Below, piece after piece: positions 6,236-63,933 of a stretch of 64,000 bases of DNA (positions are counted from its first letter, which is position 1; every line of letters begins with the position of its first letter). This DNA is from a virus. The notes under the pieces are model-generated. The model was not told the DNA's origin. It saw nothing but the letters and a program-made list of their open reading frames with translations, and searched no databases. The stretch lies in the UHGV virus genome UHGV-1421865; one strand, given 5' to 3'. The position numbers and the translations under genes were made by a program.

Positions 6236-6418
6236 TACAAAAATCTCGTCTGTGACAACGTGTGGGACACGTTTTGTGTTCCATAACGCACGATTTTTCT
6301 TTGACCTTGGTACTAGTAAGGCTGGCTGGTTTGGACACGATACAGGAGCTCTAAAGTGCCTTTACGGGCTTGTTATAGTTTGGTATACCAGTATACAAAA
6401 CAGAAACCGTCAAAGTTG
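6236..6418 (+). repeat. Conserved intergenic element family, copy 1 (divergent), directly upstream of the 916-aa gene
   Basis: ccataacgcacgatttttctttgaccttggtactagtaagg...ctaaagtgcctttacggg...cagtatacaaaacagaaaccgtcaaag. Confidence 0.7.
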
Positions 6419-6442
6419 AACTAAAATAAGACTAAAAATGAC

Positions 6443-9193
6443 ATGTTTTATACATTAGCAAAAACAGATCCCGCGTTATCGGGGAAATTCGGTCTTAGTA
6501 TAGACTACAAAGAGCACACCGTTGCTAATTTGATGTCTTTAGATACTAAAGCGACAATTCATAATATACCGGTAAAGTTATATAACGGACAGTACGAGTT
6601 CGATATTCGTCGTTGTTATAAACACTATTATGATAAATTTTATGGCACTACAAGCGATGATCCTAAGATGTACGAGTTCGGTGCCCAGCGAGTACAGAAA
6701 CAACTGTTCACACGACAGTTTATGTTTTATGCACCGTTCTATTGTGACGCAGTGAACGACATGCCCGATTCGTTTGTTATCGATATTTATCGAAAAGACA
6801 GAATACTGTCGTCGGTGAGTATTCCGTTAGACGATAAAACGTACGTAGGAAAATACTTACGTTCTTATATAGAGAAAATAGACGATAAAACAATAAACAT
6901 ATCTGTGCGCGAAAACGGTTATATCGTTACATATTACGGTATTGATCTTATAAAAGGCGGCTTGGTAGAATTCGAATATAATAACCTACATTTTGACGAG
7001 AATGGCTTGCCCAATATAGAAACAGGTTATTTCAACAAGAAAATCGTAATGCGGCAAATAATACCCCTTTGTATCACATTCGACTTAGACGAGTACATCG
7101 GACAAGACGTGATAATCCAAGGGTATTATGTCAAAAACAACATTAAATTGCCTTTATATAACATAGATAGGGTAAAAGAAACAAACAAACCGGAATATAA
7201 AAACGCATTGTCGAACAATACAACACCGTATCTATTACGCGAACGACTCCGAGAAACAGAACGCGACTATACATCACCTGTCACCAATGTATATTTCATC
7301 GACGACCTCTATACAGACGAAGAACATACTAAATCATTAAGTGACTTTATCAAATTTGCACAGAGTAAAACAAATACAAGTCTATTAAAGAACATTCAAG
7401 ACGTCGTTAATACCTATCGGTGGATAAACCGGCAATCGACAGACGCCACGGTTGTCGACGGAAAAGCGATGTACAACAATGTACTGTATTCTGGACTGGG
7501 TGATGCCAAACAGTTTAGAATCGAAGTGAATCCGATTGTAAATAACCTTAATAAAGAACATATTGTATCGTCGCGTTTTGTTATCGACAAACCGAACATG
7601 TCAAATACCAGAATCGACATCAATACGAAGGAAGGTCAAAATACATTACGAGTAGTTTCCGAACACAAGAAATACACCGTCGATTTCAATGCGTTTTTCG
7701 AACCGACGGACGATGTCACAGACAAGTCCGATTTGTACATAGAATATACTGGATTTATAAACGAATACATCACGTTAGTCGACTTCTGTGACAAGGCAGA
7801 TGGTGAAAAAGATTATATAAAAAATAATAGACTGGACGGGCAGTACGAATATACCGGTATAACAGTGGCCCCGAATAGTAACTATATCGGCGACGACTTA
7901 TACGTTGCCTCAGAAAACGGTTATACAGAATACAACGATAAAGTACACAAAGGACGGTTATATAAAAAGCAATCGTTTATTGACATTACAAAATTCAAAG
8001 ACCGGATTGTATTTGGTGCGGCAACAAGATACACCTACATACCCGTCGACGAATACAATAACAACGGCTATTTTGTAAAGACAGATTCATTGTACAGAAA
8101 CTTGTATATTTTAGGATATACACCATACAATGTCATTAAAGACTTGGGTGAAGCTGTATCGAACAAACAAATGTACTGCCAAGTCGATAATAACAAGTAT
8201 ACCGTAAAAAATTTTAGTACGTTGTTCACATCACCGGAACAAGTTGATATGTTTTATAATATAGATAACGACAGTAGACTGTATAACTCGACTAGTGACT
8301 TTGCAGCCTGGTTACCTTACCGCTTTATCACAGTACCGAAGTATTTTAATATAACAGCAGATATATATAAGAAATACATCAAATGGGACGGTAAATTTAA
8401 GCACATGTTATATCTTGTCGCATCGACAGAAAACAAACCGGCTGTGTATAATCCCAGTGCGACAAAAATAGATACAACGTCTATATTAGTAGACCCTCTA
8501 TTTGGTAACTTCGTCCAGTTCGAAGATAACGATATTGCTTTATATAACAAATTAAGATCGAAATGCGACTTTATAAACGAGCAAGCCGTCCTAAAAGAGC
8601 ACAATGCAGCATGCTTTATACGCTACGACTTAGCACCCGAAGGGGTACGTTCAACAGCCAAAAAGTATTATAAGAAGATTATCTCCGGTAGTCGTAACAG
8701 TTATATAACAAGTCGAAAAGAAAACGACGTATTTGTCTACACATTGAACGTAAACGTCACGTCGGAAGGGCACGACTGGATTTTACCGAACATGAATATA
8801 GACGTACTGAACGATCCTGAATACGTTAAGGATAACATTAGTATCATATTACCGTTATTAAAAAACAACCTCAACTTGACGGCGATAAACGAACCTGGAT
8901 TTTTTGAGCGACCGTACAAGAATAAGTTCTATTTAGGTTATTATACTCCTTATATAAAACTGTTAGAACAAACAAACCAGTTCTATTATAAGACAGAAAG
9001 GGTAGAAAACAAGTATTTACAGTATAATAAACTGTTCCCCTTACAAGACAAGGTCGTTATACCGTACGAGACCGATATATGGCAACCTTTATTATACTAC
9101 TACGGCCTATCAGACAGTACACATTTAGCATTCTTACAACGTGTTTACAACGTCATCATAACAGATGACAAAATAGAATATACACTTTTATAA
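6443..9193 (+). CDS. Large virion structural protein, 916 aa, function unknown
   Basis: Long uninterrupted ORF directly after terL inside the plus-strand structural block. Confidence 0.6.
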   Translation: MFYTLAKTDPALSGKFGLSIDYKEHTVANLMSLDTKATIHNIPVKLYNGQYEFDIRRCYKHYYDKFYGTTSDDPKMYEFGAQRVQKQLFTRQFMFYAPFYCDAVNDMPDSFVIDIYRKDRILSSVSIPLDDKTYVGKYLRSYIEKIDDKTINISVRENGYIVTYYGIDLIKGGLVEFEYNNLHFDENGLPNIETGYFNKKIVMRQIIPLCITFDLDEYIGQDVIIQGYYVKNNIKLPLYNIDRVKETNKPEYKNALSNNTTPYLLRERLRETERDYTSPVTNVYFIDDLYTDEEHTKSLSDFIKFAQSKTNTSLLKNIQDVVNTYRWINRQSTDATVVDGKAMYNNVLYSGLGDAKQFRIEVNPIVNNLNKEHIVSSRFVIDKPNMSNTRIDINTKEGQNTLRVVSEHKKYTVDFNAFFEPTDDVTDKSDLYIEYTGFINEYITLVDFCDKADGEKDYIKNNRLDGQYEYTGITVAPNSNYIGDDLYVASENGYTEYNDKVHKGRLYKKQSFIDITKFKDRIVFGAATRYTYIPVDEYNNNGYFVKTDSLYRNLYILGYTPYNVIKDLGEAVSNKQMYCQVDNNKYTVKNFSTLFTSPEQVDMFYNIDNDSRLYNSTSDFAAWLPYRFITVPKYFNITADIYKKYIKWDGKFKHMLYLVASTENKPAVYNPSATKIDTTSILVDPLFGNFVQFEDNDIALYNKLRSKCDFINEQAVLKEHNAACFIRYDLAPEGVRSTAKKYYKKIISGSRNSYITSRKENDVFVYTLNVNVTSEGHDWILPNMNIDVLNDPEYVKDNISIILPLLKNNLNLTAINEPGFFERPYKNKFYLGYYTPYIKLLEQTNQFYYKTERVENKYLQYNKLFPLQDKVVIPYETDIWQPLLYYYGLSDSTHLAFLQRVYNVIITDDKIEYTLL

Positions 9194-22152: not shown

Positions 22153-22836
22153 TCAGTGTTTATACTTGTAAGAACGCCAGAACTTATGAATTTGTGTAAC
22201 GGTAGCCTTCGAAAAGTTACCTTCTGTGTACACCGCCGTAGCGAACAGTCTGGTCGGTATGACGTAGCTCTGCATTCTAAGTGATGGGACGTACATTTTA
22301 AGTCCGAATTCTATTGACTTGTTTATATTACAAATCGCTTCCAGTCTGTCTTGTGATATGATGGTGTACGGTTTATTAGACGCTTTATTAAAATACTTAT
22401 CGAACCACGGCTTGAATGTTTCGTACACTTTAATCAACATACGGGCTCGCGCGAAGGGAGGATAGTAATGTAAGTTAAATCCTAACTCTCGTATATTTCC
22501 GTCTCGTGTACGTATCATGCCGATAAATAATGTCAATGGGGTTCTGTCGTAGTACGGCAAATCTTCTTTGTGTTTCGGTTGTGTATAGTTAAACAGTACA
22601 AGCTGTCCGGGTAGTAAGTATTTCTTTGTCGGATGCAACTCCCGTTTTATATAGGCATAAGCCAGTTTCACTCGTACCGGTGTCGGCTTATTTAACAACG
22701 GACTGGAATTGATAGCATGCTCTAAGTCGAAGTTCTTGATCTCATCTGGACTATAAATATGTTTTACGTCCTGTTTGATGTCTCGAACTAGCCCCACAGT
22801 CTGTTCCGACTCGTTAATATGTCTATTATTTATCAT
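22153..22836 (-). CDS. Hypothetical protein
   Basis: 227-aa ORF; one copy of the conserved intergenic element sits directly upstream in the same orientation. Confidence 0.5.
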   Translation of the reverse strand: MINNRHINESEQTVGLVRDIKQDVKHIYSPDEIKNFDLEHAINSSPLLNKPTPVRVKLAYAYIKRELHPTKKYLLPGQLVLFNYTQPKHKEDLPYYDRTPLTLFIGMIRTRDGNIRELGFNLHYYPPFARARMLIKVYETFKPWFDKYFNKASNKPYTIISQDRLEAICNINKSIEFGLKMYVPSLRMQSYVIPTRLFATAVYTEGNFSKATVTQIHKFWRSYKYKH

Positions 22837-22857
22837 TCATTTCGGTCTGATTTTGTT

Positions 22858-23008
22858 GATTTTGTACAGTTTCTGTTTTGTGTACTGAGGTGTAAATATA
22901 TAACGTCCCCATAAAGGCACTTTTAAGGCTCTCTAACGCACTCAAATTAGTTGACCTTACCAACACCAAGGTCAAAGAAAAATCGTGCGTTAGAGTGGAG
23001 ATTTTACT
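22858..23008 (-). repeat. Conserved element, copy 2 (minus orientation), immediately upstream of the gene at 22153..22836
   Basis: The reverse complement reads ctctaacgcacgatttttctttgaccttggtgttggtaaggtcaactaatttgagtgcgttagagagccttaaaagtgcctttatgg...cacaaaacagaaactgtacaaa. Confidence 0.8.
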
Positions 23009-23014
23009 AAGTGC

Positions 23015-23371
23015 TTATTTAGTGTTGCCGTCGGTTGTATCGTCTTCGGTGTGTTTGTTTATATAAGTGCCGATTTCTTTCGACGCTAAATTGATAGCTT
23101 CCGATGTTTGTTTTGTATCAAGTTCTTTATAAGGAGGATCGGAATATGCCACAACACCGGGCTTCCCTACCCATAGGTACCATTTATTGTCTGTTTTACC
23201 TAATAGAAATTGGAATTCGTCGTTATAGGTGTATTCTATTTTCTGAAACTTTGAGTCATCATCCAATTCTGAGACTGTGTTACCTTGTTCGTCGTATATA
23301 TTAAAGACAACATCTCGTGTATTATCGGCTGCCGACTCTTGTAGTTTAATAAAAGAATATATTGATTTCAT
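23015..23371 (-). CDS. Hypothetical protein
   Basis: 118-aa ORF. Confidence 0.45.
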   Translation of the reverse strand: MKSIYSFIKLQESAADNTRDVVFNIYDEQGNTVSELDDDSKFQKIEYTYNDEFQFLLGKTDNKWYLWVGKPGVVAYSDPPYKELDTKQTSEAINLASKEIGTYINKHTEDDTTDGNTK

Positions 23372-25207: not shown

Positions 25208-25274
25208 TTATACTTATATTGTATATAAATGATAATCCTTTCGTCTGCGTATTTACTATGTATACAAAACATTC

Positions 25275-25431
25275 AAAAACTTGCCCTCTAACGCACGATT
25301 TTTGTTGAGGCTTAGTAGTACCAAGGTAAGTGTATTTGAGTGCGTCAGAGAGCCTTAAAAGTGCCTTTATGGACGTGTCACGTATTTGTACGTCGGTGGG
25401 AAAAACACAAACCGGTCAAAATCGACAAAAT
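25275..25431 (+). repeat. Conserved element, copy 3 (plus orientation, between minus-strand genes); a hairpin and a plus-strand terminator follow it
   Basis: cttgccctctaacgcacgatttttgttgaggcttagtagtaccaaggtaagtgtatttgagtgcgtcagagagccttaaaagtgcctttatggacgtg...aaacacaaaccggtcaaaatc. Confidence 0.8.
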
Positions 25432-30854: not shown

Positions 30855-30888
30855 CTTTATATAGTACATGATGTATACAAAATCAGTG
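30855..30888 (-). promoter_or_regulatory. Sigma70-like promoter cTGATT-N17-TATATAAA; its spacer is not the conserved one
   Basis: On the minus strand: cTGATTttgtatacatcatgtacTATATAAA, upstream of the gene at 30572..30835. Confidence 0.4.
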
Positions 30889-30984
30889 CAATTTTGACGG
30901 TTTCTGTTTCGCATACTGGTATGTATAAACGTAGAATCGTAATAAAGCCACCATATTCGTCCTCTGTCGCGTCCGAATGGTCTA

Positions 30985-31040
30985 GCCTTGGTACTACTAA
31001 GCCTCAACAAAAATCGTGCGATAGAGGAGAGATTTTCTCA
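30985..31040 (-). repeat. Conserved element, copy 4: a partial half-element in minus orientation
   Basis: ggtactactaagcctcaacaaaaatcgtgcgatagag is the reverse complement of the gcacgatttttgttgaggcttagtagtacc half found in copies 3 and 5. Confidence 0.6.
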
Positions 31041-31058
31041 AGTTTTTTAATGTTAACA

Positions 31059-35777: not shown

Positions 35778-35808
35778 GTACCATCTTCTTATAACTTATA
35801 AAACGCCC

Positions 35809-35960
35809 AAAAATTTGCTCTCTACCACACGATTTTTGTTGAGGCTTAGTAGTACCAAGGTAAGTGTATTTGAGTGCGTCAGAGAGCCTAAAAAGTGCCT
35901 TTATGGACGTGTTATGATTCTACTGTAGCCTACCCAGAACAGAAACCGTCAAAAAATCAA
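35809..35960 (+). repeat. Conserved element, copy 5 (plus orientation, between minus genes); a hairpin follows
   Basis: Nearly identical to copy 3 over about 100 nt. Tail is cagaacagaaaccgtcaaaaaatc followed by cagacg...cgtctg. Confidence 0.8.
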
Positions 35961-36007
35961 CAAAAAACAGACGCATTCTAGTTAAAGAACACGTCTGCTT
36001 GTTCAAA

Positions 36008-50720: not shown

Positions 50721-51173
50721 ATGGGATTTGATATTAAAACGTTAAAACCGAATAAAAATGGTCGATATAAACAAGGTTATTTAGATAAATCACAATGTAA
50801 GAAATTAGTATGTGAAAATAATGAGCCTGTTATATATCGTTCCGGTCTGGAATTAAAGTTTATTAAATACTGTGAGACGAATCCGCTGATCAAACGTTGG
50901 GGGTCTGAAATAATCAAAATAGATTACTACAACCCCCTTCGTGAGAAGATGTGTGAGTATTTTCCGGATTATGTGATAGAACATACCGACGGGCAGAAGT
51001 TTATTGTTGAAATTAAACCGTACGAGCAAACCAAGAAGCCACGGAAGAAAGCGTCACAATGGTTGAAAGAGCAATATGTTATCAACGTTTCTAAATGGCG
51101 TGCAGCTCAGGCATACGCTACGGCAAATAACGTTAAGTTCGTTGTTGTCACAGAACGGTTCTTCGGTCACTGA
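50721..51173 (+). CDS. Possible PD-(D/E)xK-fold nuclease-like protein; start moved to the internal ATG
   Basis: FPDYVIEHTDGQKFIVEIKPYEQ looks like a D...E.K core. This is tentative. Confidence 0.35.
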   Translation: MGFDIKTLKPNKNGRYKQGYLDKSQCKKLVCENNEPVIYRSGLELKFIKYCETNPLIKRWGSEIIKIDYYNPLREKMCEYFPDYVIEHTDGQKFIVEIKPYEQTKKPRKKASQWLKEQYVINVSKWRAAQAYATANNVKFVVVTERFFGH

Positions 51174-51193: not shown

Positions 51194-51229
51194 AAAAGAG
51201 ACTGTGCAGTTACTTGTACAGTCTCTTTT
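51194..51229 (+). terminator. Hairpin plus T-run terminator
   Basis: agagactgtgcag...ctgtacagtctcttttttg. Confidence 0.6.
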
Positions 51230-51250
51230 TTGTCAACTTATCAAAACATA

Positions 51251-51400
51251 CAAAAATTTGCTCTGTATCGCATTATTTTTCTTAGCCTTGGTGTAACTAA
51301 GGTCACTACATTTGAGTGCGTCAGAGGGCCTTAAAAGTGCCTTTATGAAGACGTAGGGTATTTACATACCAGTATGCAAAACAGAAACAACACAAAAACT
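51251..51400 (+). repeat. Conserved element, copy 6, between convergent terminators
   Basis: tttgctctgtatcgcattatttttcttagccttggtgtaactaaggtcactacatttgagtgcgtcagagggccttaaaagtgcctttatg...cagtatgcaaaacagaaacaacac. Confidence 0.8.
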
Positions 51401-51428
51401 ATAAAATTAGATTGAAATATAAAGAAAA

Positions 51429-51466
51429 AAGACTGTACAAGTAACTGTACAGTCTCTTTTTAGTTT
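51429..51466 (-). terminator. Hairpin terminator after the minus-strand gene at 51465
   Basis: agactgtacaagtaactgtacagtct with a flanking T-run on the minus strand. Confidence 0.55.
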
Positions 51467-54901: not shown

Positions 54902-54914
54902 TTTAGAAGAAGTC

Positions 54915-55070
54915 AGAAAATCTGCCCTCTAACGCACGATTTTTCTTTGACCTTGGTACTACTAAGGTCGCTACATTTGAGTGCGCCAGAGAGCCTAAAA
55001 AGTGCCTTTACGTGGACGTCAGATATTTACACATCAGTATGCAAAACAGAAACGTCAAAATAACCAACCC
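54915..55070 (+). repeat. Conserved element, copy 7; the strong terminator at 55082 follows
   Basis: ctgccctctaacgcacgatttttctttgaccttggtactactaaggtcgctacatttgagtgcgccagagagcctaaaaagtgcctttacgtggacgtc...cagtatgcaaaacagaaacgtcaaaataacc. Confidence 0.85.
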
Positions 55071-55081
55071 AACATAACAAA

Positions 55082-55126
55082 AATGCCTGTCGAAGGAACT
55101 TGTTGATTCCTTTAGACAGGCATTTT
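55082..55126 (+). terminator. Strong hairpin plus T-run terminator after element copy 7
   Basis: aaaatgcctgtc...gacaggcatttttatatttt. Confidence 0.6.
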
Positions 55127-55159
55127 TATATTTTGTTGTTTGTCACAGATATAAAGCTA

Positions 55160-55320
55160 TAAAAACTTGCCCTCTAACGCACGATTTTTCTTTGACCTTG
55201 GTGTTGGTAAGGTCAACTAATTTGAGTGCGTCAGAGGGGCTAAAAAGTGCCTTTACGGACGTGTGATGATTCTGTACGTCGGTGTACAAAACAGAAACCA
55301 CCCAATCAGCCCCAATATAT
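55160..55320 (+). repeat. Conserved element, copy 8, in tandem with copy 7; a hairpin follows
   Basis: cttgccctctaacgcacgatttttctttgaccttggtgttggtaaggtcaactaatttgagtgcgtcagaggggctaaaaagtgcctttacggacgtg...gtacaaaacagaaaccacccaatc. Confidence 0.85.
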
Positions 55321-55522
55321 AACAAAAATGTCTGCCGAGGAACGAACAAGAAACCCTCGACAGACAAATAATAGCAATTCTTAAGTCAGGATAAGTAATA
55401 ACTTTCCTAACACCCATGATGTTGTTATTAGTCATCTAGATATACGTTGATCTATATCAGTTTTACGTGATAATGGTACGATTCTATTGCCTCTGCAGCG
55501 ACAATAGACATTCTCATTTTAG

Positions 55523-55604: not shown

Positions 55605-55703
55605 TGGTATCTACAAGAATTGAACTTGTGACACACGGATTTTCAGTCCCACGCTCTGGTCAACTGCGTTGACTTACTTTGTCACCAACTGAGCTACATC
55701 ACC
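55605..55703 (-). pseudogene. Degenerate tRNA-Phe(GAA)-like locus with a 26-nt hairpin inserted in the D-loop
   Basis: Has GTAGCTCAGTTGGT...AGAGC, a CTGAAAA anticodon loop and a T arm ACAAG-ttcaatt-CTTGT. The acceptor strands and the anticodon stem do not pair. Confidence 0.35.
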
Positions 55704-56114: not shown

Positions 56115-56195
56115 ATAGTCCCAGGCCAGGATTCGAACCTGAATTTCGTCTCCAATGAGACGTGTATTAGCCTTTATACTAACTGAGTAATATAG
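56115..56195 (-). pseudogene. tRNA-like remnant: a T arm is present, but there is no foldable anticodon arm or 5' acceptor
   Basis: caggTTCGAATcctg T arm; the central segment forms a cgtctc-attg-gagacg mini-hairpin instead of an anticodon arm. Confidence 0.3.
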
Positions 56196-56955: not shown

Positions 56956-57027
56956 AGAGCTTCCTGTCAGAGTCGAACTGACAACCTCTTCATTACAAGT
57001 GAAGCGCACTGCCATTGTGCTAAGGAA
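56956..57027 (-). tRNA. tRNA-Thr(TGT)
   Basis: Acceptor GCTTCCT/AGGAAGC, anticodon arm CTTCA-cttgtaa-TGAAG, T arm GTCAG-ttcgact-CTGAC. Confidence 0.8.
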
Positions 57028-57147
57028 GCGAATGCTTCCAGTATATCACGTTAGTGACATTAAGGAAGCGAATGCTTCCAGTATATCACGTTAGTGACAT
57101 TAAGGAAGCGAATGCTTCCAGTATATCACGTTAGTGACATTAAGGAA
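57021..57147. repeat. 40-bp tandem direct repeat, 3.2 copies, starting inside the 5' end of tRNA-Thr
   Basis: Unit aggaagcgaatgcttccagtatatcacgttagtgacatta, three times and perfect. Each unit holds the palindrome ggaagc-gaat-gcttcc and a TATACT (-10-like) on the tRNA strand. Confidence 0.85.
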
Positions 57148-57215
57148 GCAGGTGTAGTCTAAATTAGACTTTGATTGTGGTGTAAAATCACGCTAATTAA
57201 ACTACATTCATTGAG

Positions 57216-57388: not shown

Positions 57389-57488
57389 TGGACCAGGTAG
57401 GACTTGAACCTACGACTCTGGAAAACAAACTAGAGAAAGGAGGTTAAACTAGTGTGAATTCGGCTCTGGCCATCTGAGCTACTGGTCC
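57389..57488 (-). pseudogene. Interrupted or intron-like tRNA gene: acceptor, D and T arms are canonical, but the anticodon and variable region is 49 nt
   Basis: GGACCAG-TA-GCTC-agatggcca-GAGC and GTAGG-ttcaagt-CCTAC-CTGGTCC-A. No 17-nt anticodon arm can be folded. The insert carries an actag/ctagt stem and, on the opposite strand, AAGGAGGT followed by GTG then TGA. Confidence 0.45.
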
Positions 57489-58505: not shown

Positions 58506-58862
58506 CTAATATAATCCAGCATGTCGCTTAATAGGTTCATAATACAACTCGTCTACTCGTTCGTTGCTGTACTTATCGTTTATTGCGACAACCAGCTTAC
58601 CATCTTTTTCTGAAACAACATACTCAGCAATGGTCCGACCGAACACATAAAGTACGATGTGTAGGTTTTTATAGTTCGAATGATCGAACATCACTTCAAT
58701 TTCATCGAGCAGGGCACATTCATTATGATACAGATACGGCAATGTTTCTACGAAATCGATGATGCTATCGGTATTGGTGAATTTTGAATATGCGCAAAAC
58801 ATAACAAACTCGTCTCTGTCACTATCGACAGGATAACCTGACTTCATTTCTGTGTACAACAT
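58506..58862 (-). CDS. Hypothetical protein
   Basis: 118-aa ORF with a conserved-spacer promoter immediately upstream. Confidence 0.5.
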   Translation of the reverse strand: MLYTEMKSGYPVDSDRDEFVMFCAYSKFTNTDSIIDFVETLPYLYHNECALLDEIEVMFDHSNYKNLHIVLYVFGRTIAEYVVSEKDGKLVVAINDKYSNERVDELYYEPIKRHAGLY

Positions 58863-58904
58863 ACTGTGTAATTTTTACTGGTCTTGTTTCTAACTTGATT
58901 TGTT

Positions 58905-58941
58905 ATATATTATATAGTCTACTTTATGAATAAAATCAACT
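58905..58941 (-). promoter_or_regulatory. Sigma70-like promoter with the conserved spacer
   Basis: On the minus strand: TTGATTttattcataaagtagacTATATAAT. Confidence 0.55.
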
Positions 58942-59111
58942 TATGTAGTACCAGAAGCGGGACTCATCGTACATGAAAATCTAAATCATTACATTTAGTT
59001 TTCACTTCTTGCTTCAATCTATCACTACTAATTGTAATCAATATCACAATCCCATAGGAGGATAGTCCACAAGCGTAAATTCGGTACTACGAATACCTAC
59101 TAGTTTTGTTC

Positions 59112-60251
59112 TTATACTGCACTTATCCTACGACCCTCGTAGAGGATATTTAGTGCTGCATTGTAATCTCTATCATGGTTTGTGCCACATTTAGGACAAC
59201 ACCAATAACGGTCTTGTAACTTCAAGTCATTGTGTACATAACCACATTGTGAACAAGTCTTTGAGCTGGGATAAAATCGATCAATAAGTACAACCTTCTT
59301 GTCGTTTTGTAAAGCCTTAGTTGATAGCACAGTCTTGAACTTAAAAAATCCAACTTCTTGGATTGCCTTGGCAAGTTTATGATTTTTCATCATCCCTTAT
59401 ACATTCAAGTCTTCCATGTAGACAGTATCATACTGTGACAATAACTCATTTACTACAGAATGTATATAGTTTTCCTTCTTATTCGTAATAGTCTCAAACA
59501 CTTTCGCTATCCTCTTACACTGTTTATAGAAGTTGTTTGAACCTTTACGTTTCCTCGACAACTGTCGTTGTAGCTTTACAAGTCGCTTTTCTTCTTTATT
59601 ATAGAAATGTTTGTTGTCAAATGTAGTGTCATCTGATGTTATAACAAAATCCTTAACACCTAGATCGATACCGACATCACGACCTGTTTTATTGAACTTA
59701 GTAAGTTCGTTATCATTCATATCAATAAGAATAGATAAGAAGAAATTCCCACTCTTGGTTTTCGATAAGGTTGCACTTCTTATATTGTTCTTATATCTAC
59801 GCAATCTTGCCAAGTACAAATCAGAACATCTAAATGATATGTCTTTTAATTTGGTTGTAAGTGTTATCTTACGTGTCACAAATGTATTTTTCTTGGATAT
59901 TGTACCTTTCGGGAACAACGCAGATTGGTTATTCTTCTTCGACTTGAACTTTGGAAACCCATTATGTTGTTTGAAGAATTTTTGGTAGCCACTATCCATT
60001 TGTCTAATAGCTTGATTCATTATCTTTGTATTCTGTTCCTTCAACCAAGCATATTGTTCATCTTTCAATAACTCATGATGAAAATGTTTGGATAGTTGAG
60101 TTGTTCCAAGATTTGTTTTATCTGTGTTATACGCTTCTTGTTTACGAGCAAGCATGTAGTTATAAACAAAACGATAACACCCAAGCACACTATTTAGTAC
60201 CTGTTCTTGTGTTTTATTTGGATATAACCTTATTTTGATTGCTCGTAACAT
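59112..60251 (-). pseudogene. tnpB: IS200/IS605-family tnpB (OMEGA / RNA-guided nuclease), interrupted by an in-frame TAA
   Basis: N-terminus MLRAIKIRLYPNKTQEQVLNSVLGCYRFVYN and GIDLGVKDF (RuvC-I) ...MEDLNV, then TAA, then in the same frame GMMKNHKLAKAIQEVGFFKF...CSQCG...CPKCG...HDRDYNAALNI (zinc finger plus RuvC-III). Hand translation confirms a single in-frame stop where a Lys codon is expected. Confidence 0.8.
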
Positions 60252-60293
60252 TGATTTCCTTATTTAACTACTTGATTGTTTACTGTTACTATT

Positions 60294-60382
60294 TGGTGCC
60301 CGAAGTGGGGGTCGAACCCACACGAACATTACTGTTCAAGAGATCCTAAATCTCTCATGTATACCAATTTCATCATTCGGGC
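60294..60382 (-). tRNA. tRNA-Leu(TAG), class II, CCA encoded
   Basis: Acceptor GCCCGAA/TTCGGGC, anticodon arm AGAGA-tttagga-TCTCT, variable-arm hairpin GAACA-gtaa-TGTTC, T arm GTGGG-ttcgacc-CCCAC, 3' ACCA. Confidence 0.8.
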
Positions 60383-60635
60383 AACTAAGTATGGTTATAA
60401 CGTTACCAACGCAGCTCACTAAGACTAATTCGCGACTTAGCAAATAATGATTACTCCGAGATTTGGAATGTATAATTACTCTATCTTCTACGGCTGTATG
60501 ATAGAAACCTAATTAGTTTAGGATACTCTGGGTCCCAATGTGCCCAAATTTTGCATACTCTTATCGTACGTTATATATGTTAATAGTATGCGAAAAACAT
60601 ATACACGCCAGTTTCTAGTGACTTGGGTACTGTTG

Positions 60636-61193: not shown

Positions 61194-61221
61194 AACCTAC
61201 TTGATTGTTTACTGTTACTAT

Positions 61222-61308
61222 TTGGTACCCGAAGTGGGGGTCGAACCCACATGGTCTACTGACCAAAAGATTTTAAATCTTTCATGTATACCGATTTCAT
61301 CATTCGGG
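61222..61308 (-). tRNA. tRNA-Leu(TAA), class II, CCA encoded
   Basis: A paralog of the tRNA at 60294 including about 30 bp of 3' flank. Anticodon arm AAAGA-tttaaaa-TCTTT. Confidence 0.75.
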
Positions 61309-62684: not shown

Positions 62685-63041
62685 TCACTTGAATTTTGGT
62701 TTATATGCATCATCTATATGACAATTATCGAACATAAAACGATGGTATTTTACATTGCTGACGTCCCACTTAGACAAGTCACAGCTGAATTCTTTACAAC
62801 CAGAAAACATTTTGTCCATGTTCGTAACGTTAGAGACGTCCCATTCGTCGATTTTGATGTTTCTAATACCAACCCAAACAAATAAAAACGACATGTCTGT
62901 AATCAACGACGTATCAATGAAATTGAGATCAGCATCTGGACCTTGTCGCTTAATTTCTTCCATTATAATAGAAGTAAGTTCATCTTTTGATGTAGGCGTC
63001 AATGTTGCCGATTTTGTATTTGATGTGATATGTATTGCCAT
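62685..63041 (-). CDS. BspA-type leucine-rich-repeat (DUF285-like) protein, paralog 1
   Basis: WDVSNVTNMDKMFSGC...DLSKWDVSNV repeats. Confidence 0.65.
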   Translation of the reverse strand: MAIHITSNTKSATLTPTSKDELTSIIMEEIKRQGPDADLNFIDTSLITDMSFLFVWVGIRNIKIDEWDVSNVTNMDKMFSGCKEFSCDLSKWDVSNVKYHRFMFDNCHIDDAYKPKFK

Positions 63042-63059
63042 TACTATTTAATCTAAATA

Positions 63060-63560
63060 TCATCTATATCCAAATAACTGTCTCATAATCCTATTTAATT
63101 CATCAACACGGTCAGACGACATTGCGTCATTGTTAAATTTTGGTTTATATGACTCCATTATAGGACAGTTATAGAACATACCAGACATATCTGTCACATT
63201 AGAAACGTCCCACTTAGACAAGTCACGGTTGAATTTGATACAACAATCAAACATGTTTTCCATGTTAGTCACATTAGAGACGTCCCACTTAGACAAGTCA
63301 CAGTTGAATTTTAGACAACCACAAAACAGGTGGCGCATATTTGTCACATTAGAGACTTCCCACTGGTCTACTTTAATGTTACCAATGGTAATCATACCAA
63401 ACAACATAGACATGTCTGTTATAAGCGACGTATCGATATGATTCAAATCGGCATCCGGACCTTGCCGCTTAATTTCTTCCCAGATAATGTCTCTGAGTTC
63501 GTATTTTGTTGTTGGTTTTATTGTTAATGATCTCGCATTTGATGTAATGTGAATCGGCAT
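63060..63560 (-). CDS. BspA-type LRR (DUF285-like) protein, paralog 2
   Basis: Three units of FxCDLSKWDVSNVTxMxxMF. Confidence 0.65.
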   Translation of the reverse strand: MPIHITSNARSLTIKPTTKYELRDIIWEEIKRQGPDADLNHIDTSLITDMSMLFGMITIGNIKVDQWEVSNVTNMRHLFCGCLKFNCDLSKWDVSNVTNMENMFDCCIKFNRDLSKWDVSNVTDMSGMFYNCPIMESYKPKFNNDAMSSDRVDELNRIMRQLFGYR

Positions 63561-63576
63561 AGTAAAACTGTGTTAA

Positions 63577-63933
63577 TCAATAAAATTTTGGTTGCAGTTC
63601 CGGTGTCATATTAGGACAATCCTCAAAAATACCATCATATCGTTCTACATTGCTAACATCCCAACCAGACAAGTCACACTTGAAATTTTGATTTGTAAAC
63701 ATGGCGATCATATTCGTGACATTGGATACGTTCCATTCGTCTATCTTAATGTTTCCAATCTCAATCCACCAAAACAACATAGACATATCTGTAATAAGCG
63801 ATGTATCGATAAAGTTCAAATCAGCATCGGGACCTTGACGTTCCAATTCTTGTTCTATAATAGACCTCAGTTGTTTTTTCGATGTTGGTTTCAGTCTTAA
63901 TAATTTGCTGTTAGATGTGATGTGAATTGGCAT
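63577..63933 (-). CDS. BspA-type LRR (DUF285-like) protein, paralog 3
   Basis: MPIHITSN...QGPDADLNFIDTSLITDMSMLF...WNVSNVTNM. Confidence 0.65.
   Translation of the reverse strand: MPIHITSNSKLLRLKPTSKKQLRSIIEQELERQGPDADLNFIDTSLITDMSMLFWWIEIGNIKIDEWNVSNVTNMIAMFTNQNFKCDLSGWDVSNVERYDGIFEDCPNMTPELQPKFY

Follow-up and report, generated by a model that had tools for sequence, protein, structure and literature searches.

We describe a family of intergenic cassettes in UHGV virus genome UHGV-1421865, a stretch of 64,000 nucleotides that we call the window. The cassette is most likely a small transcription unit. In the reading that we favor, at a probability of about one in three, each copy encodes a non-coding RNA of ~95-110 nt on the strand opposite to the one assumed in a preliminary description of positions 54915-55340, where two copies form a tandem pair with a bidirectional terminator hairpin between them. 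The orientation assumed there, which is plus at both of these copies, is called the reader's strand below. Copies in the window are numbered c1 to c8, and L-numbers denote compared stretches outside the window, such as L150 and L162 from ERZ651108.

The window belongs to a large T4-like phage that has a portal, a large terminase (TerL), a DNA polymerase and a minus-strand tRNA cluster. The Pfam families Portal_T4, Phage_T4_gp2 and T4_Y16D are present in its relatives and in the contig from which it derives, the 187-kb ERZ772909 NODE_12. By TerL, the nearest isolate is Tenacibaculum phage PTm1, at 31.6% identity. No Shine-Dalgarno sequences were found ahead of start codons in the whole window, and genes that lack them suggest a Bacteroidota host for this phage.

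Copies, distribution and anatomy

With a profile of the copies, nhmmer detects eight full copies in the window, no more and no fewer, and nothing else (E 1e-40 to 1e-46). There, CTCTAACGCAC with at most one mismatch is matched 11 times versus 0.7 expected and RAAACAGAAACC eight times versus 0.74 expected, and no shuffle attains the observed motif counts. The eight-copy family of the preliminary description is therefore real, and its outer inverted repeat, GACCTT/AAGGTC inner hairpin, AAAAGTGCCTTTA block and ACAAAACAGAAAC tail are all present in the alignments. Six copies (c1, c3 and c5-c8) are on the plus strand; c2 and c4, by correction of that description, are on the minus strand (Table 1). 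The 10-kb flanks on each side of the window contribute four further copies, so that 12 copies of a rigid ~165-bp unit occur in 83 kb, a lower bound for the source contig. A metagenome scan revealed a relative with about 85-90% (~87%) nucleotide identity, ERZ651108 NODE-4 (143 kb) and NODE-28 (69 kb), that carries at least 14 copies in the parts fetched, and a 7-kb contig, ERZ1674171, that carries two more. Several short assemblies (Logan and ENA contigs) end inside copies, which fits a repeated sequence.

Searches of wider collections gave no further family members. A phage database had no match to the region by megablast or blastn, and IMG/VR had no match to two specific two-block patterns and only chance singletons for a 14-nt pattern; a genome-collection match (L163) and three metagenome matches (L149, L152 and L156) were rejected as chance. 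Rfam covariance models matched only tRNAs at gathering score in the window, with sub-threshold hairpin matches alone in the c7-c8 region at E up to 10. We also searched terL flanks with nhmmer in 34 IMG/VR relatives and three closer lineages with 65-67% TerL identity. No copy was found within ~10 kb of terL in relatives with 53-67% identical TerL, and the repeats of the three closer lineages are coding DUF285-type repeats. Given this absence, the family is young and lineage-specific. Four loci (c1, c3, c4 and c6) can be compared with the ~87%-identical relatives; all are occupied, at stable positions.

An alignment of 21 copies from the window and close relatives (A3) is essentially gap-free. 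In the reader's orientation, the unit opens with (A)AAACC-N3-AAAAATTTG and the 14-nt arm GCCCTsTRACGCAC, followed by an invariant GATTTTTsTT and the inner hairpin (GA)CCTT-9 nt-AAGG(TC). A near-invariant CATTTGA leads to the second arm, GTGCGTYAGAGrGC. Then come the invariant CTWAAAAGTGCCTTTA, about 22-25 variable nt, the tail CAGTAYRCRAAACAGAAACC and a semi-conserved A-rich end, GTCRAAATYAGACYAAAAT. The core is as first described, but conservation extends beyond the ~150 bp and the limits proposed for it, reaching roughly AAAACCnnnAAAAATTTG at the left end and roughly GACYAAAAT at the right. Mean pairwise identity is 87% in the left flank with its A-run and the 5' arm, 71% in the inner hairpin, 87.5% in the central block (block iii), 55% in the variable stretch, 80% in the tail and 53% in the A-rich end. 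The variable stretch diverges by 45% at constant length, with no indel in columns 101-150 among the 21 paralogues. The A-run, a T-run on the opposite strand, is kept in every copy that is complete at that end and free of a 28-nt mini-insert (alignments A3 and A4). The internal-loop sequences GATTTTT and CATTTGAG are invariant, though unpaired on both strands. Neither strand of the element holds a conserved open reading frame (ORF); a small-ORF reading was rejected, as the one minus-strand frame open through the hairpin has no start codon and contains stops in several copies.

Table 1. Copies of the element in the window, parts of c7 and c8, and the hairpins beside them
Feature	Position	nhmmer match	Strand	Remarks
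c1	6250-6440	6274-6424	plus	5' arm split by 28-nt hairpin mini-insert at 6256-6283; 3' arm degenerate
c2	22851-23012	23010-22852	minus	fills entire gap from gene 23015-23371 (minus) to gene 22153-22836 (minus)
c3	25269-25430	25270-25429	plus	antisense to both flanking minus-strand genes
c4	30883-31043	31042-30884	minus	degenerate block; sigma-70-like promoter-like motif follows; inversion breakpoint
c5	35803-35964	35804-35963	plus	antisense to both flanking minus-strand genes
c6	51246-51406	51248-51403	plus	between inverted copies of one terminator hairpin (51194-51233, 51425-51464)
c7	54912-55072	54912-55066	plus (reader's orientation)	nhmmer E=7e-46
c7 A-run/T-run	54916-54923			GAAAATCT (consensus AAAAATTT); minus-strand U-run, starts 3 nt past helix
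c7 outer 5' arm	54924-54937			GCCCTCTAACGCAC
c7 inner hairpin	54949-54969			GACCTT-GGTACTACT-AAGGTC; loop in both orientations across family
c7 outer 3' arm	54981-54994			GTGCGCCAGAGAGC
c7 block	54997-55010			AAAAAGTGCCTTTA; in family's best-conserved stretch; unpaired in minus-strand fold
c7 spacer	55011-55034			variable sequence, fixed length; plus-strand TAnnnT position is CAGATA in c7
c7 conserved tail	55035-55054			CAGTATGCAAAACAGAAACG
Terminator hairpin between c7 and c8	55079-55129		bidirectional	A-run, stem GCCTGTC/GACAGGC, T-run
c8	55157-55317	55158-55315	plus	nhmmer E=3e-46
c8 arms	55169-55182, 55226-55239
c8 inner hairpin	55194-55214
c8 block	55242-55255
c8 tail	55280-55299
Hairpin after c8	55330-55365		minus	GTCTGCCGAGG...CCTCGACAGAC; minus strand continues ATTTTTGTTAT; T-run on minus strand only

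Strand asymmetry and the proposed RNA

The palindromic part of the element pairs better on the strand opposite to the reader's. Standard pairs occupy 88.1% of nested-helix cells on the opposite strand versus 83.0% on the reader's strand across the 21 copies, and 91.7% versus 82.3% when only the outer helix is counted. The outer-helix difference arises because two mismatches of the reader's strand, A.C at pair 27/83 (15/21 copies, the commonest state) and C.A at pair 22/88 (8 copies), become G.U on the opposite strand; pair 25/85 is also mismatched on the reader's strand, as G.G, in 7/21. The opposite-strand hairpin is the more stable one in 15 of 20 copies; the mean energies are -27.8 versus -25.1 kcal/mol. 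In c3, the hairpin folds on the minus strand only (z -5.4 minus versus -0.9 plus), and in c8 the values are -7.4 minus versus -4.9 plus. In c4, pair 28/82 has switched from A-T to T-A, one true compensatory change.

An integral hairpin followed by a T-run exists on the opposite strand only, where the conserved AAATTTTT follows the outer helix. This arrangement, a 14-bp helix and a conserved T4-6 run with AAA or CAAA between them, lies beyond the 0-2-nt rule of the terminator scan. An autonomous RNA gene, if that is what the element is, would have its integral hairpin and U-run on this strand. The tail CAGTAYRCRAAACAGAAACC and the A-rich end would then be promoter-proximal DNA, and the length-fixed variable stretch of 22-25 nt would be a promoter spacer. 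The invariant block, RUAAAGGCACUUUUWAGG on the opposite strand, would form the single-stranded 5' part of the RNA, so that ~18 conserved unpaired nt are predicted ahead of the hairpin. The 70-nt nested palindrome would form a terminal hairpin with a 14-bp basal helix, a fixed-sequence 11x11 internal loop and a 6-10-bp apical helix, and AAAAATTT on the left would supply the U-run. The predicted RNA of c7 would extend from ~55009 to ~54916 on the minus strand, and that of c8 from ~55254 to ~55161. The conservation profile, high in the A-run, arm and block, low in the spacer and intermediate in the tail, fits an RNA product, and an RNA gene on the opposite strand accounts for all parts of the unit through one function. 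The family, its rigid build, the strand asymmetry of the helix, the U-run, the contexts of the copies and recombination between them are observed; that the element is transcribed, the transcript ends and any role in trans are inferred. More tentatively, we suggest a dispersed family of ~100-nt small RNA (sRNA) genes, at least 12 in 83 kb, each with its own promoter and hairpin/U-run terminator, which would together provide an abundant RNA acting on a host or phage target via the invariant 18-nt 5' segment. That this RNA is a high-dosage decoy or a regulator is a guess; no targets complementary to the conserved block were found in the window.

By our tally, the genomic context is natural for an RNA gene on the opposite strand at ~16 of ~20 loci. 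For example, that strand is co-oriented with both neighboring genes at c3, c5, c10 and L160a, coming after the upstream gene's terminator at c3 and c5, and c8 and c7 come straight after the minus-strand tRNA cluster and share its orientation on that strand. Convergent junctions hold c6, L151, L160b, L154b and L162b; a terminator hairpin stands on both sides at c6/L162b, L151 and L160b, and only on the convergent gene's side at L154b. Four copies (c4, L157, L159 and L160c) are back-to-back with a divergent sigma-70-like promoter-like motif. In the window, copies occupy 2/3 convergent junctions versus 5/~45 co-directional gaps. Relative to the reader's strand, the ~20 loci comprise seven copies in sense and four in antisense between co-directional genes, five or six at convergent junctions, where orientation is uninformative, and one at a divergent junction. 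An apparent 18:3 bias of the element toward positions after a co-oriented gene was rejected as an artefact of counting convergent junctions, leaving the informative co-directional split of 7:4.

The hairpins that follow the copies belong mostly to other genes. The preliminary description treated those after c3, c5 and c8 as terminators of the element. Their T-runs are on the opposite strand and they therefore terminate neighboring minus-strand genes or the tRNA operon; in particular, the hairpin after c8 terminates the minus-strand tRNA operon and not c8. Bidirectional hairpins follow c7 and c6 only. The stem between c7 and c8 covaries with that of the hairpin after c8. Little therefore speaks for the transcription units that were envisaged as ending at these hairpins, most of which face the other way. 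In addition, a neighbor's terminator precedes ~10/21 copies by 10-25 nt, leaving no promoter room for a full-element transcript on the reader's strand. The placement of c6 between two copies of one terminator hairpin (D17) is as originally reported. These two copies are inverted relative to each other, as are those flanking L151, an orientation evident from their reverse-complemented loops; this suggests that the bracketing terminators arose by duplication or by inversion through palindromic terminators.

Several observations weigh against an RNA gene on the opposite strand. Covariation, the check proposed for the nested stems, is never above shuffles in the 21 copies: the score is 0.088 on the plus strand (shuffled mean 0.096) and 0.129 on the minus strand (shuffled mean 0.144). 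The wobble asymmetry amounts to 9 versus 4 site-events, which is not significant, and it tracks the local direction of transcription (3 antisense versus 8 sense copies; one-sided rank test, p ~0.02, calculated by hand from fold energies and contexts), so that a transcription-coupled C>T bias could produce it. The start of the U-run, 3 nt past the helix, is not that of a canonical intrinsic terminator. No convincing promoter was found on the opposite strand, where the best candidate, TTGCRT-N17-TAACRn, has its last T in only 7/21 copies, whereas a TAnnnT on the reader's strand, 9 nt past the invariant block in columns 116-121, is present in 14/21 copies and provides the alignment's top column. 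At c1/L161, c2 and L154a/L176-17582, the proposed unit would be antisense within an apparent operon with the downstream ATG abutting it, and c1 has an intact tail despite a broken hairpin. Finally, to our knowledge, multi-copy sRNA gene families have not been described in phages, which makes the prior low.

Promoter signals, recombination and competing readings

The main rival, somewhat less probable, is a promoter and leader cassette on the reader's strand, comparable to the PeSL/PmSL cassettes of T4-like phages (Arbiol et al. 2010, PMC2839356; Comeau et al. 2014, PMC4122927). Its promoter (module B) would consist of the box AAAAGTGCCTTTA at about -34 to -22 in place of a -35 element, 9 nt, and TAnnnT as the -10 element. 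An unstructured CA-rich leader would follow, with the GACYAAAAT end just ahead of the start codon, and the palindrome (module A) would be an operator or an insulator for the opposite strand. In c7, the block at 54997-55010 would then be a -30 box and the tail at 55035-55054 the first part of the leader. Gene-linked copies would drive the next gene, and orphan copies would give short leader RNAs or be relics of rearrangement. The hexamer stands in the most variable stretch, and the tail and spacer region of the other strand contains nothing comparable. At c1/L161, c2 and L154a/L176-17582, the element fills the gap between same-strand genes with the next ATG directly after the conserved end, ~55-60 nt past the hexamer, and no promoter-like motif intervenes; c1 and c2 were correctly placed directly upstream of genes in the same orientation, and the c1 tail reaches to within 19 nt of the ATG at 6443. 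On the reader's strand, the 3' half folds no better than shuffled sequence (z +1.3 and -0.3), and it is A-rich, as are the upstream regions of the phage's genes, and c1 retains module B though module A has decayed. The phage is T4-like, and PeSLs share the logic of a stem-loop followed by a promoter and mark rearrangements (PMC4122927). However, the reader's strand has no -35 element and no TTG 17 nt upstream of TAnnnT, and a sigma-70 scan found no promoter inside c6-c8. Only 3-4 of ~20 loci have an ATG against the conserved end, and at ~11 of ~20 the element points at nothing or is antisense to both neighbors. A promoter at c8 would direct antisense transcription into the tRNA cluster, unchecked by any terminator on that strand. 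The best-conserved 100 nt would be untranscribed upstream DNA, and the T-run of the stem-loop is on the wrong strand for a PeSL.

Other promoter types bear on this alternative. T4 middle promoters have a MotA box, TGCTTtA, at -30, followed by 11-13 nt and TAnnnT. The box TGCCTTTA resembles the MotA box, with a spacer of 9 nt here, but the annotation of ~83 kb contains no Pfam match to MotA or AsiA, and Pfam and PHROG scans of the large ORFs adjoining copies found no regulator. A Bacteroidota sigma-A promoter (TTTG at -33, 19-21 nt, TAnnTTTG at -7) was rejected for lack of enrichment: the composite TTTG-N17-23-TAnnTTTG occurs 3 times in the window versus 3.4 expected and among elements only in c7, and TAnnTTTG is not enriched in intergenic DNA (9/54 matches). 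Two other motifs were observed in the phage. One, yTGATTTTG-N14-CTATATAA(n)TATAnAAACAA, is conserved in intergenic DNA and can be read as the sigma-70-like promoter nTGATT-N17-TATATA. Its sites, often back-to-back with elements, precede small-ORF and tRNA blocks; they are at 30885, 30553, 41484 (and 41506), 58938 and 61709, all on the minus strand, and the motif also occurs in L157, L158, L159 and L162. The other, a short TATA(A/T)A 8-25 nt 5' of many ATGs across the window, implies very short 5' untranslated regions. The element matches neither.

Recombination between copies is demonstrated. Relative to the window, ERZ651108 joins 33478->31057 via an element to 55153->55635 (L150) and joins 29995->30838 via a partly deleted element to 54901->52247 (L162). 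These junctions define an inversion of ~24 kb (window ~31057-54901) that covers DNA-metabolism and structural genes and has both ends in oppositely oriented copies, c4 and c7/c8. The copies are also mosaics. For example, c3 and the orthologous L158b carry different variants, L158b matching c2 and c8, which indicates that copies exchange sequence. As ~165-bp repeats present in both orientations, the copies act passively as recombination substrates. An unlikely alternative is a selfish or neutral dispersed repeat, MITE-like (miniature inverted-repeat transposable element) or spread by recombination, with no role in phage gene expression and with conserved blocks that would only aid its own propagation or stem from gene conversion. 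Its lineage specificity, with no copy in terL flanks of relatives or in IMG/VR, the occurrence of both orientations, the enrichment at convergent junctions, the variant exchange and the copies at inversion breakpoints are all consistent with this alternative, and the phage also has a tnpB remnant and a second, tiny insertion element. Against it, there are no terminal inverted repeats, the ends being direct-repeat-like, and a target-site duplication suggested by AAACC-N3-AAAAT at both ends was rejected, as similarity between a copy's own flank and tail is not above the between-copy level (permutation p=0.36). Positions are stable at the four comparable loci, no similarity to the tnpB locus was found, and uneven conservation (87% versus 55%) with strict length implies constraint beyond neutral decay. 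Among the three options first offered, a promoter and leader module and an sRNA family remain the best candidates, recombination is established for the third, and the argument from selected structure fails.

Still less probable is a DNA-level protein-binding module, in which inverted half-sites CTsTRACGCAC, 43 bp apart with GACCTT-N9-AAGGTC between them, would be bound by a phage factor and act as an operator, function in replication or recombination, or form a site of structure-specific recombination. Variation in the arms, with R in position 5 and S in position 3, resembles degenerate half-sites and not compensatory pairs, GATTTTT and CATTTGAG are invariant without pairing, loop orientation would be irrelevant, and inversion breakpoints fall in copies. 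However, no candidate binding protein was found, and the conserved, asymmetric 90-nt 3' half would be left unexplained. An integron attC identity was rejected because the R''/R' boxes, RYYYAAC ... GTTRRRY in attC sites, fail (the 3' arm is GTCAGAG in 15/21 copies and GTTAGAG in 6), nor does the annotated ~83 kb show an integrase or invertase.

The preliminary description took the presence of the inner loop in both orientations as an argument that secondary structure is real and selected. GTA.TAC being palindromic in itself, the loops that it compared, GGTACTACT and AGTAGTACC, differ at only 3/9 bases, and intermediate forms occur, such as GGTAGTACC in L157. True inversion is seen in a second loop type, with GGTGTTGGT in c2, c8 and L158b versus ACCAACACT in L154a (8/9 bases reverse-complemented). 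Flipping therefore occurs, but inversion of a loop between short inverted repeats is a DNA-level mutational event, neutral to RNA folding by symmetry only, and covariation does not exceed shuffles on either strand; the argument does not hold. RNAalifold gives a weak consensus of -7.5 kcal/mol with a positive covariation term. The reading tied to this argument, a structured plus-strand RNA of ~150 nt (sRNA or cis-leader) with selected nested stems, is very improbable: the 5' domain folds on the plus strand with z ~-4.9 in c7 and c8, and c1, c2 and L154a would be transcribed through if operons read through, but, in addition to the mismatches at 27/83 and 25/85, c3 is unfolded on the plus strand, the 3' half is unstructured, and the copies have neither an upstream promoter nor a terminator of their own. 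Weight beyond these five readings goes to other possibilities.

Neighboring features and known systems

Other repeats and mobile elements occur in the same genome. The 28-nt mini-insert in c1, CAMCGTGTGGGACACGTTKTGTGTWCCA, has a perfect 6-bp hairpin with a GGG loop and is also found at L160:~12731, L162:~2016, L151:~10935, L158:~1629 and in L153 (contig NODE-4). Flanked on both sides by TAA or TGA, resembling a 3-bp duplication, and located at varied positions in or beside elements in a single orientation throughout, it looks like a tiny mobile insertion. An IS605-family tnpB (Pfam HTH_OrfB_IS605, OrfB_IS605 and Cas12f1-like_TNB) lies in the tRNA region at 59112-60251 on the minus strand, downstream of a duplicated tRNA-Leu 3' flank (60268-60322 and 61197-61251, 98% identical). 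An in-frame TAA at 59397-59399 breaks the tnpB into ORFs of 284 and 93 aa, so that it is possibly recoded or a pseudogene, and no tnpA was seen. Kinship of the element to this locus, as an IS200/IS605 derivative (PATE) or a TnpB omega-RNA, was rejected, as blastn-short and nhmmer against 58700-60450 gave only chance 8-12-mers. At 62685-63933 (minus) and onward (L174), a run of paralogous DUF285 (BspA-type repeat) genes carries long internal DNA repeats of families D1 and D7, and this family is also expanded in L169, a relative with 65% TerL identity.

The tRNA cluster contains further oddities. A perfect tandem repeat at 57021-57149, with ~3.2 copies of the 40-nt unit TAAGGAAGCGAATGCTTCCAGTATATCACGTTAGTGACAT and an internal hairpin, starts within the end of tRNA-Thr (56957-57029). 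At 55605-55703, 57389-57488 and 56118-56188, the cluster includes odd tRNA-like genes: two Rfam tRNA matches of ~100 nt have no ARAGORN call and may have introns or long arms, and one tRNA is called by ARAGORN with a 2-nt "anticodon". Directly 5' of c6, a 150-aa protein encoded at 50721-51173 (plus) has a Tn7 TnsA-like N-terminal endonuclease domain and may be a free-standing homing-type nuclease.

The element shares features with several known systems. Dispersed extragenic repeats of bacteria include REP/BIME, ERIC, Correia/NEMIS, BOX and RUP. Like them, the element is an imperfectly palindromic intergenic repeat of comparable length (~100-150 bp), enriched near gene 3' ends, present in both orientations and a substrate for recombination. 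Unlike them, it resides in a phage genome, is palindromic only in its left ~70 bp and has no terminal inverted repeats and no duplication of TA or any other target; its ends and its occupied orthologous loci likewise separate it from MITEs. Quasipalindrome template switching is a mutational mechanism, and Kelchner and Wendel reportedly described hairpin-associated minute inversions in chloroplast non-coding DNA in 1996. As in such inversions, the loop between short inverted arms occurs in both orientations among homologous copies. Minute inversions are a mechanism and not an element family, and they explain flipping without selection on RNA structure. T4 has small stable RNAs beside its tRNA cluster (species 1 and 2, RNA C and D). 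Similarly, c7 and c8 are ORF-less, ~100 nt in the proposed transcript, and directly downstream of and co-oriented with a tRNA cluster, but there is no sequence or Rfam relationship, and the family's copies, at least 12, are dispersed beyond the tRNA region.

PeSLs are likewise multi-copy, composite intergenic motifs of T4-type genomes in which a stem-loop stands beside promoter-like sequence. In both families, some copies end at a start codon, the distribution is lineage-specific, and copies lie at points of rearrangement between relatives, here the inversion ends in c4 and c7/c8 relative to ERZ651108. The element differs in being about twice as long and far more rigid, and in lacking a sigma-70 promoter of the form -35/N17/-10. 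Whereas a PeSL has a 5' stem-loop that terminates the upstream gene, a sigma-70 early promoter, and a ribosome-binding site and start codon at its 3' end, the hairpin of the element precedes the promoter-like half with its T-run on the opposite strand, with separate neighbor terminators before about half of the copies; only the TAnnnT recalls the promoter, and the few ATGs at the 3' end have no Shine-Dalgarno sequence. In addition, the stem-loop is the most conserved part of the element, half of the copies have no gene to drive, and copies are found both among core and structural genes and in plastic regions.

As RNA genes, the copies would constitute a high-copy sRNA family of a phage with a probable Bacteroidota host, a setting in which phage-encoded regulation by RNA has hardly been explored. 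As promoter cassettes, they would extend the PeSL idea, in which mobile cassettes reshuffle T4-type genomes, to a very distant branch, including a non-sigma-70 architecture and inversions of core-gene blocks. Either way, the family marks repeat-driven rearrangement in large uncultured phages and fragments their metagenome assemblies. In kind, it belongs with the dispersed cassettes, regulatory or RNA, already known to shuffle T4-type genomes; the family, its architecture and the lineage that carries it are new.

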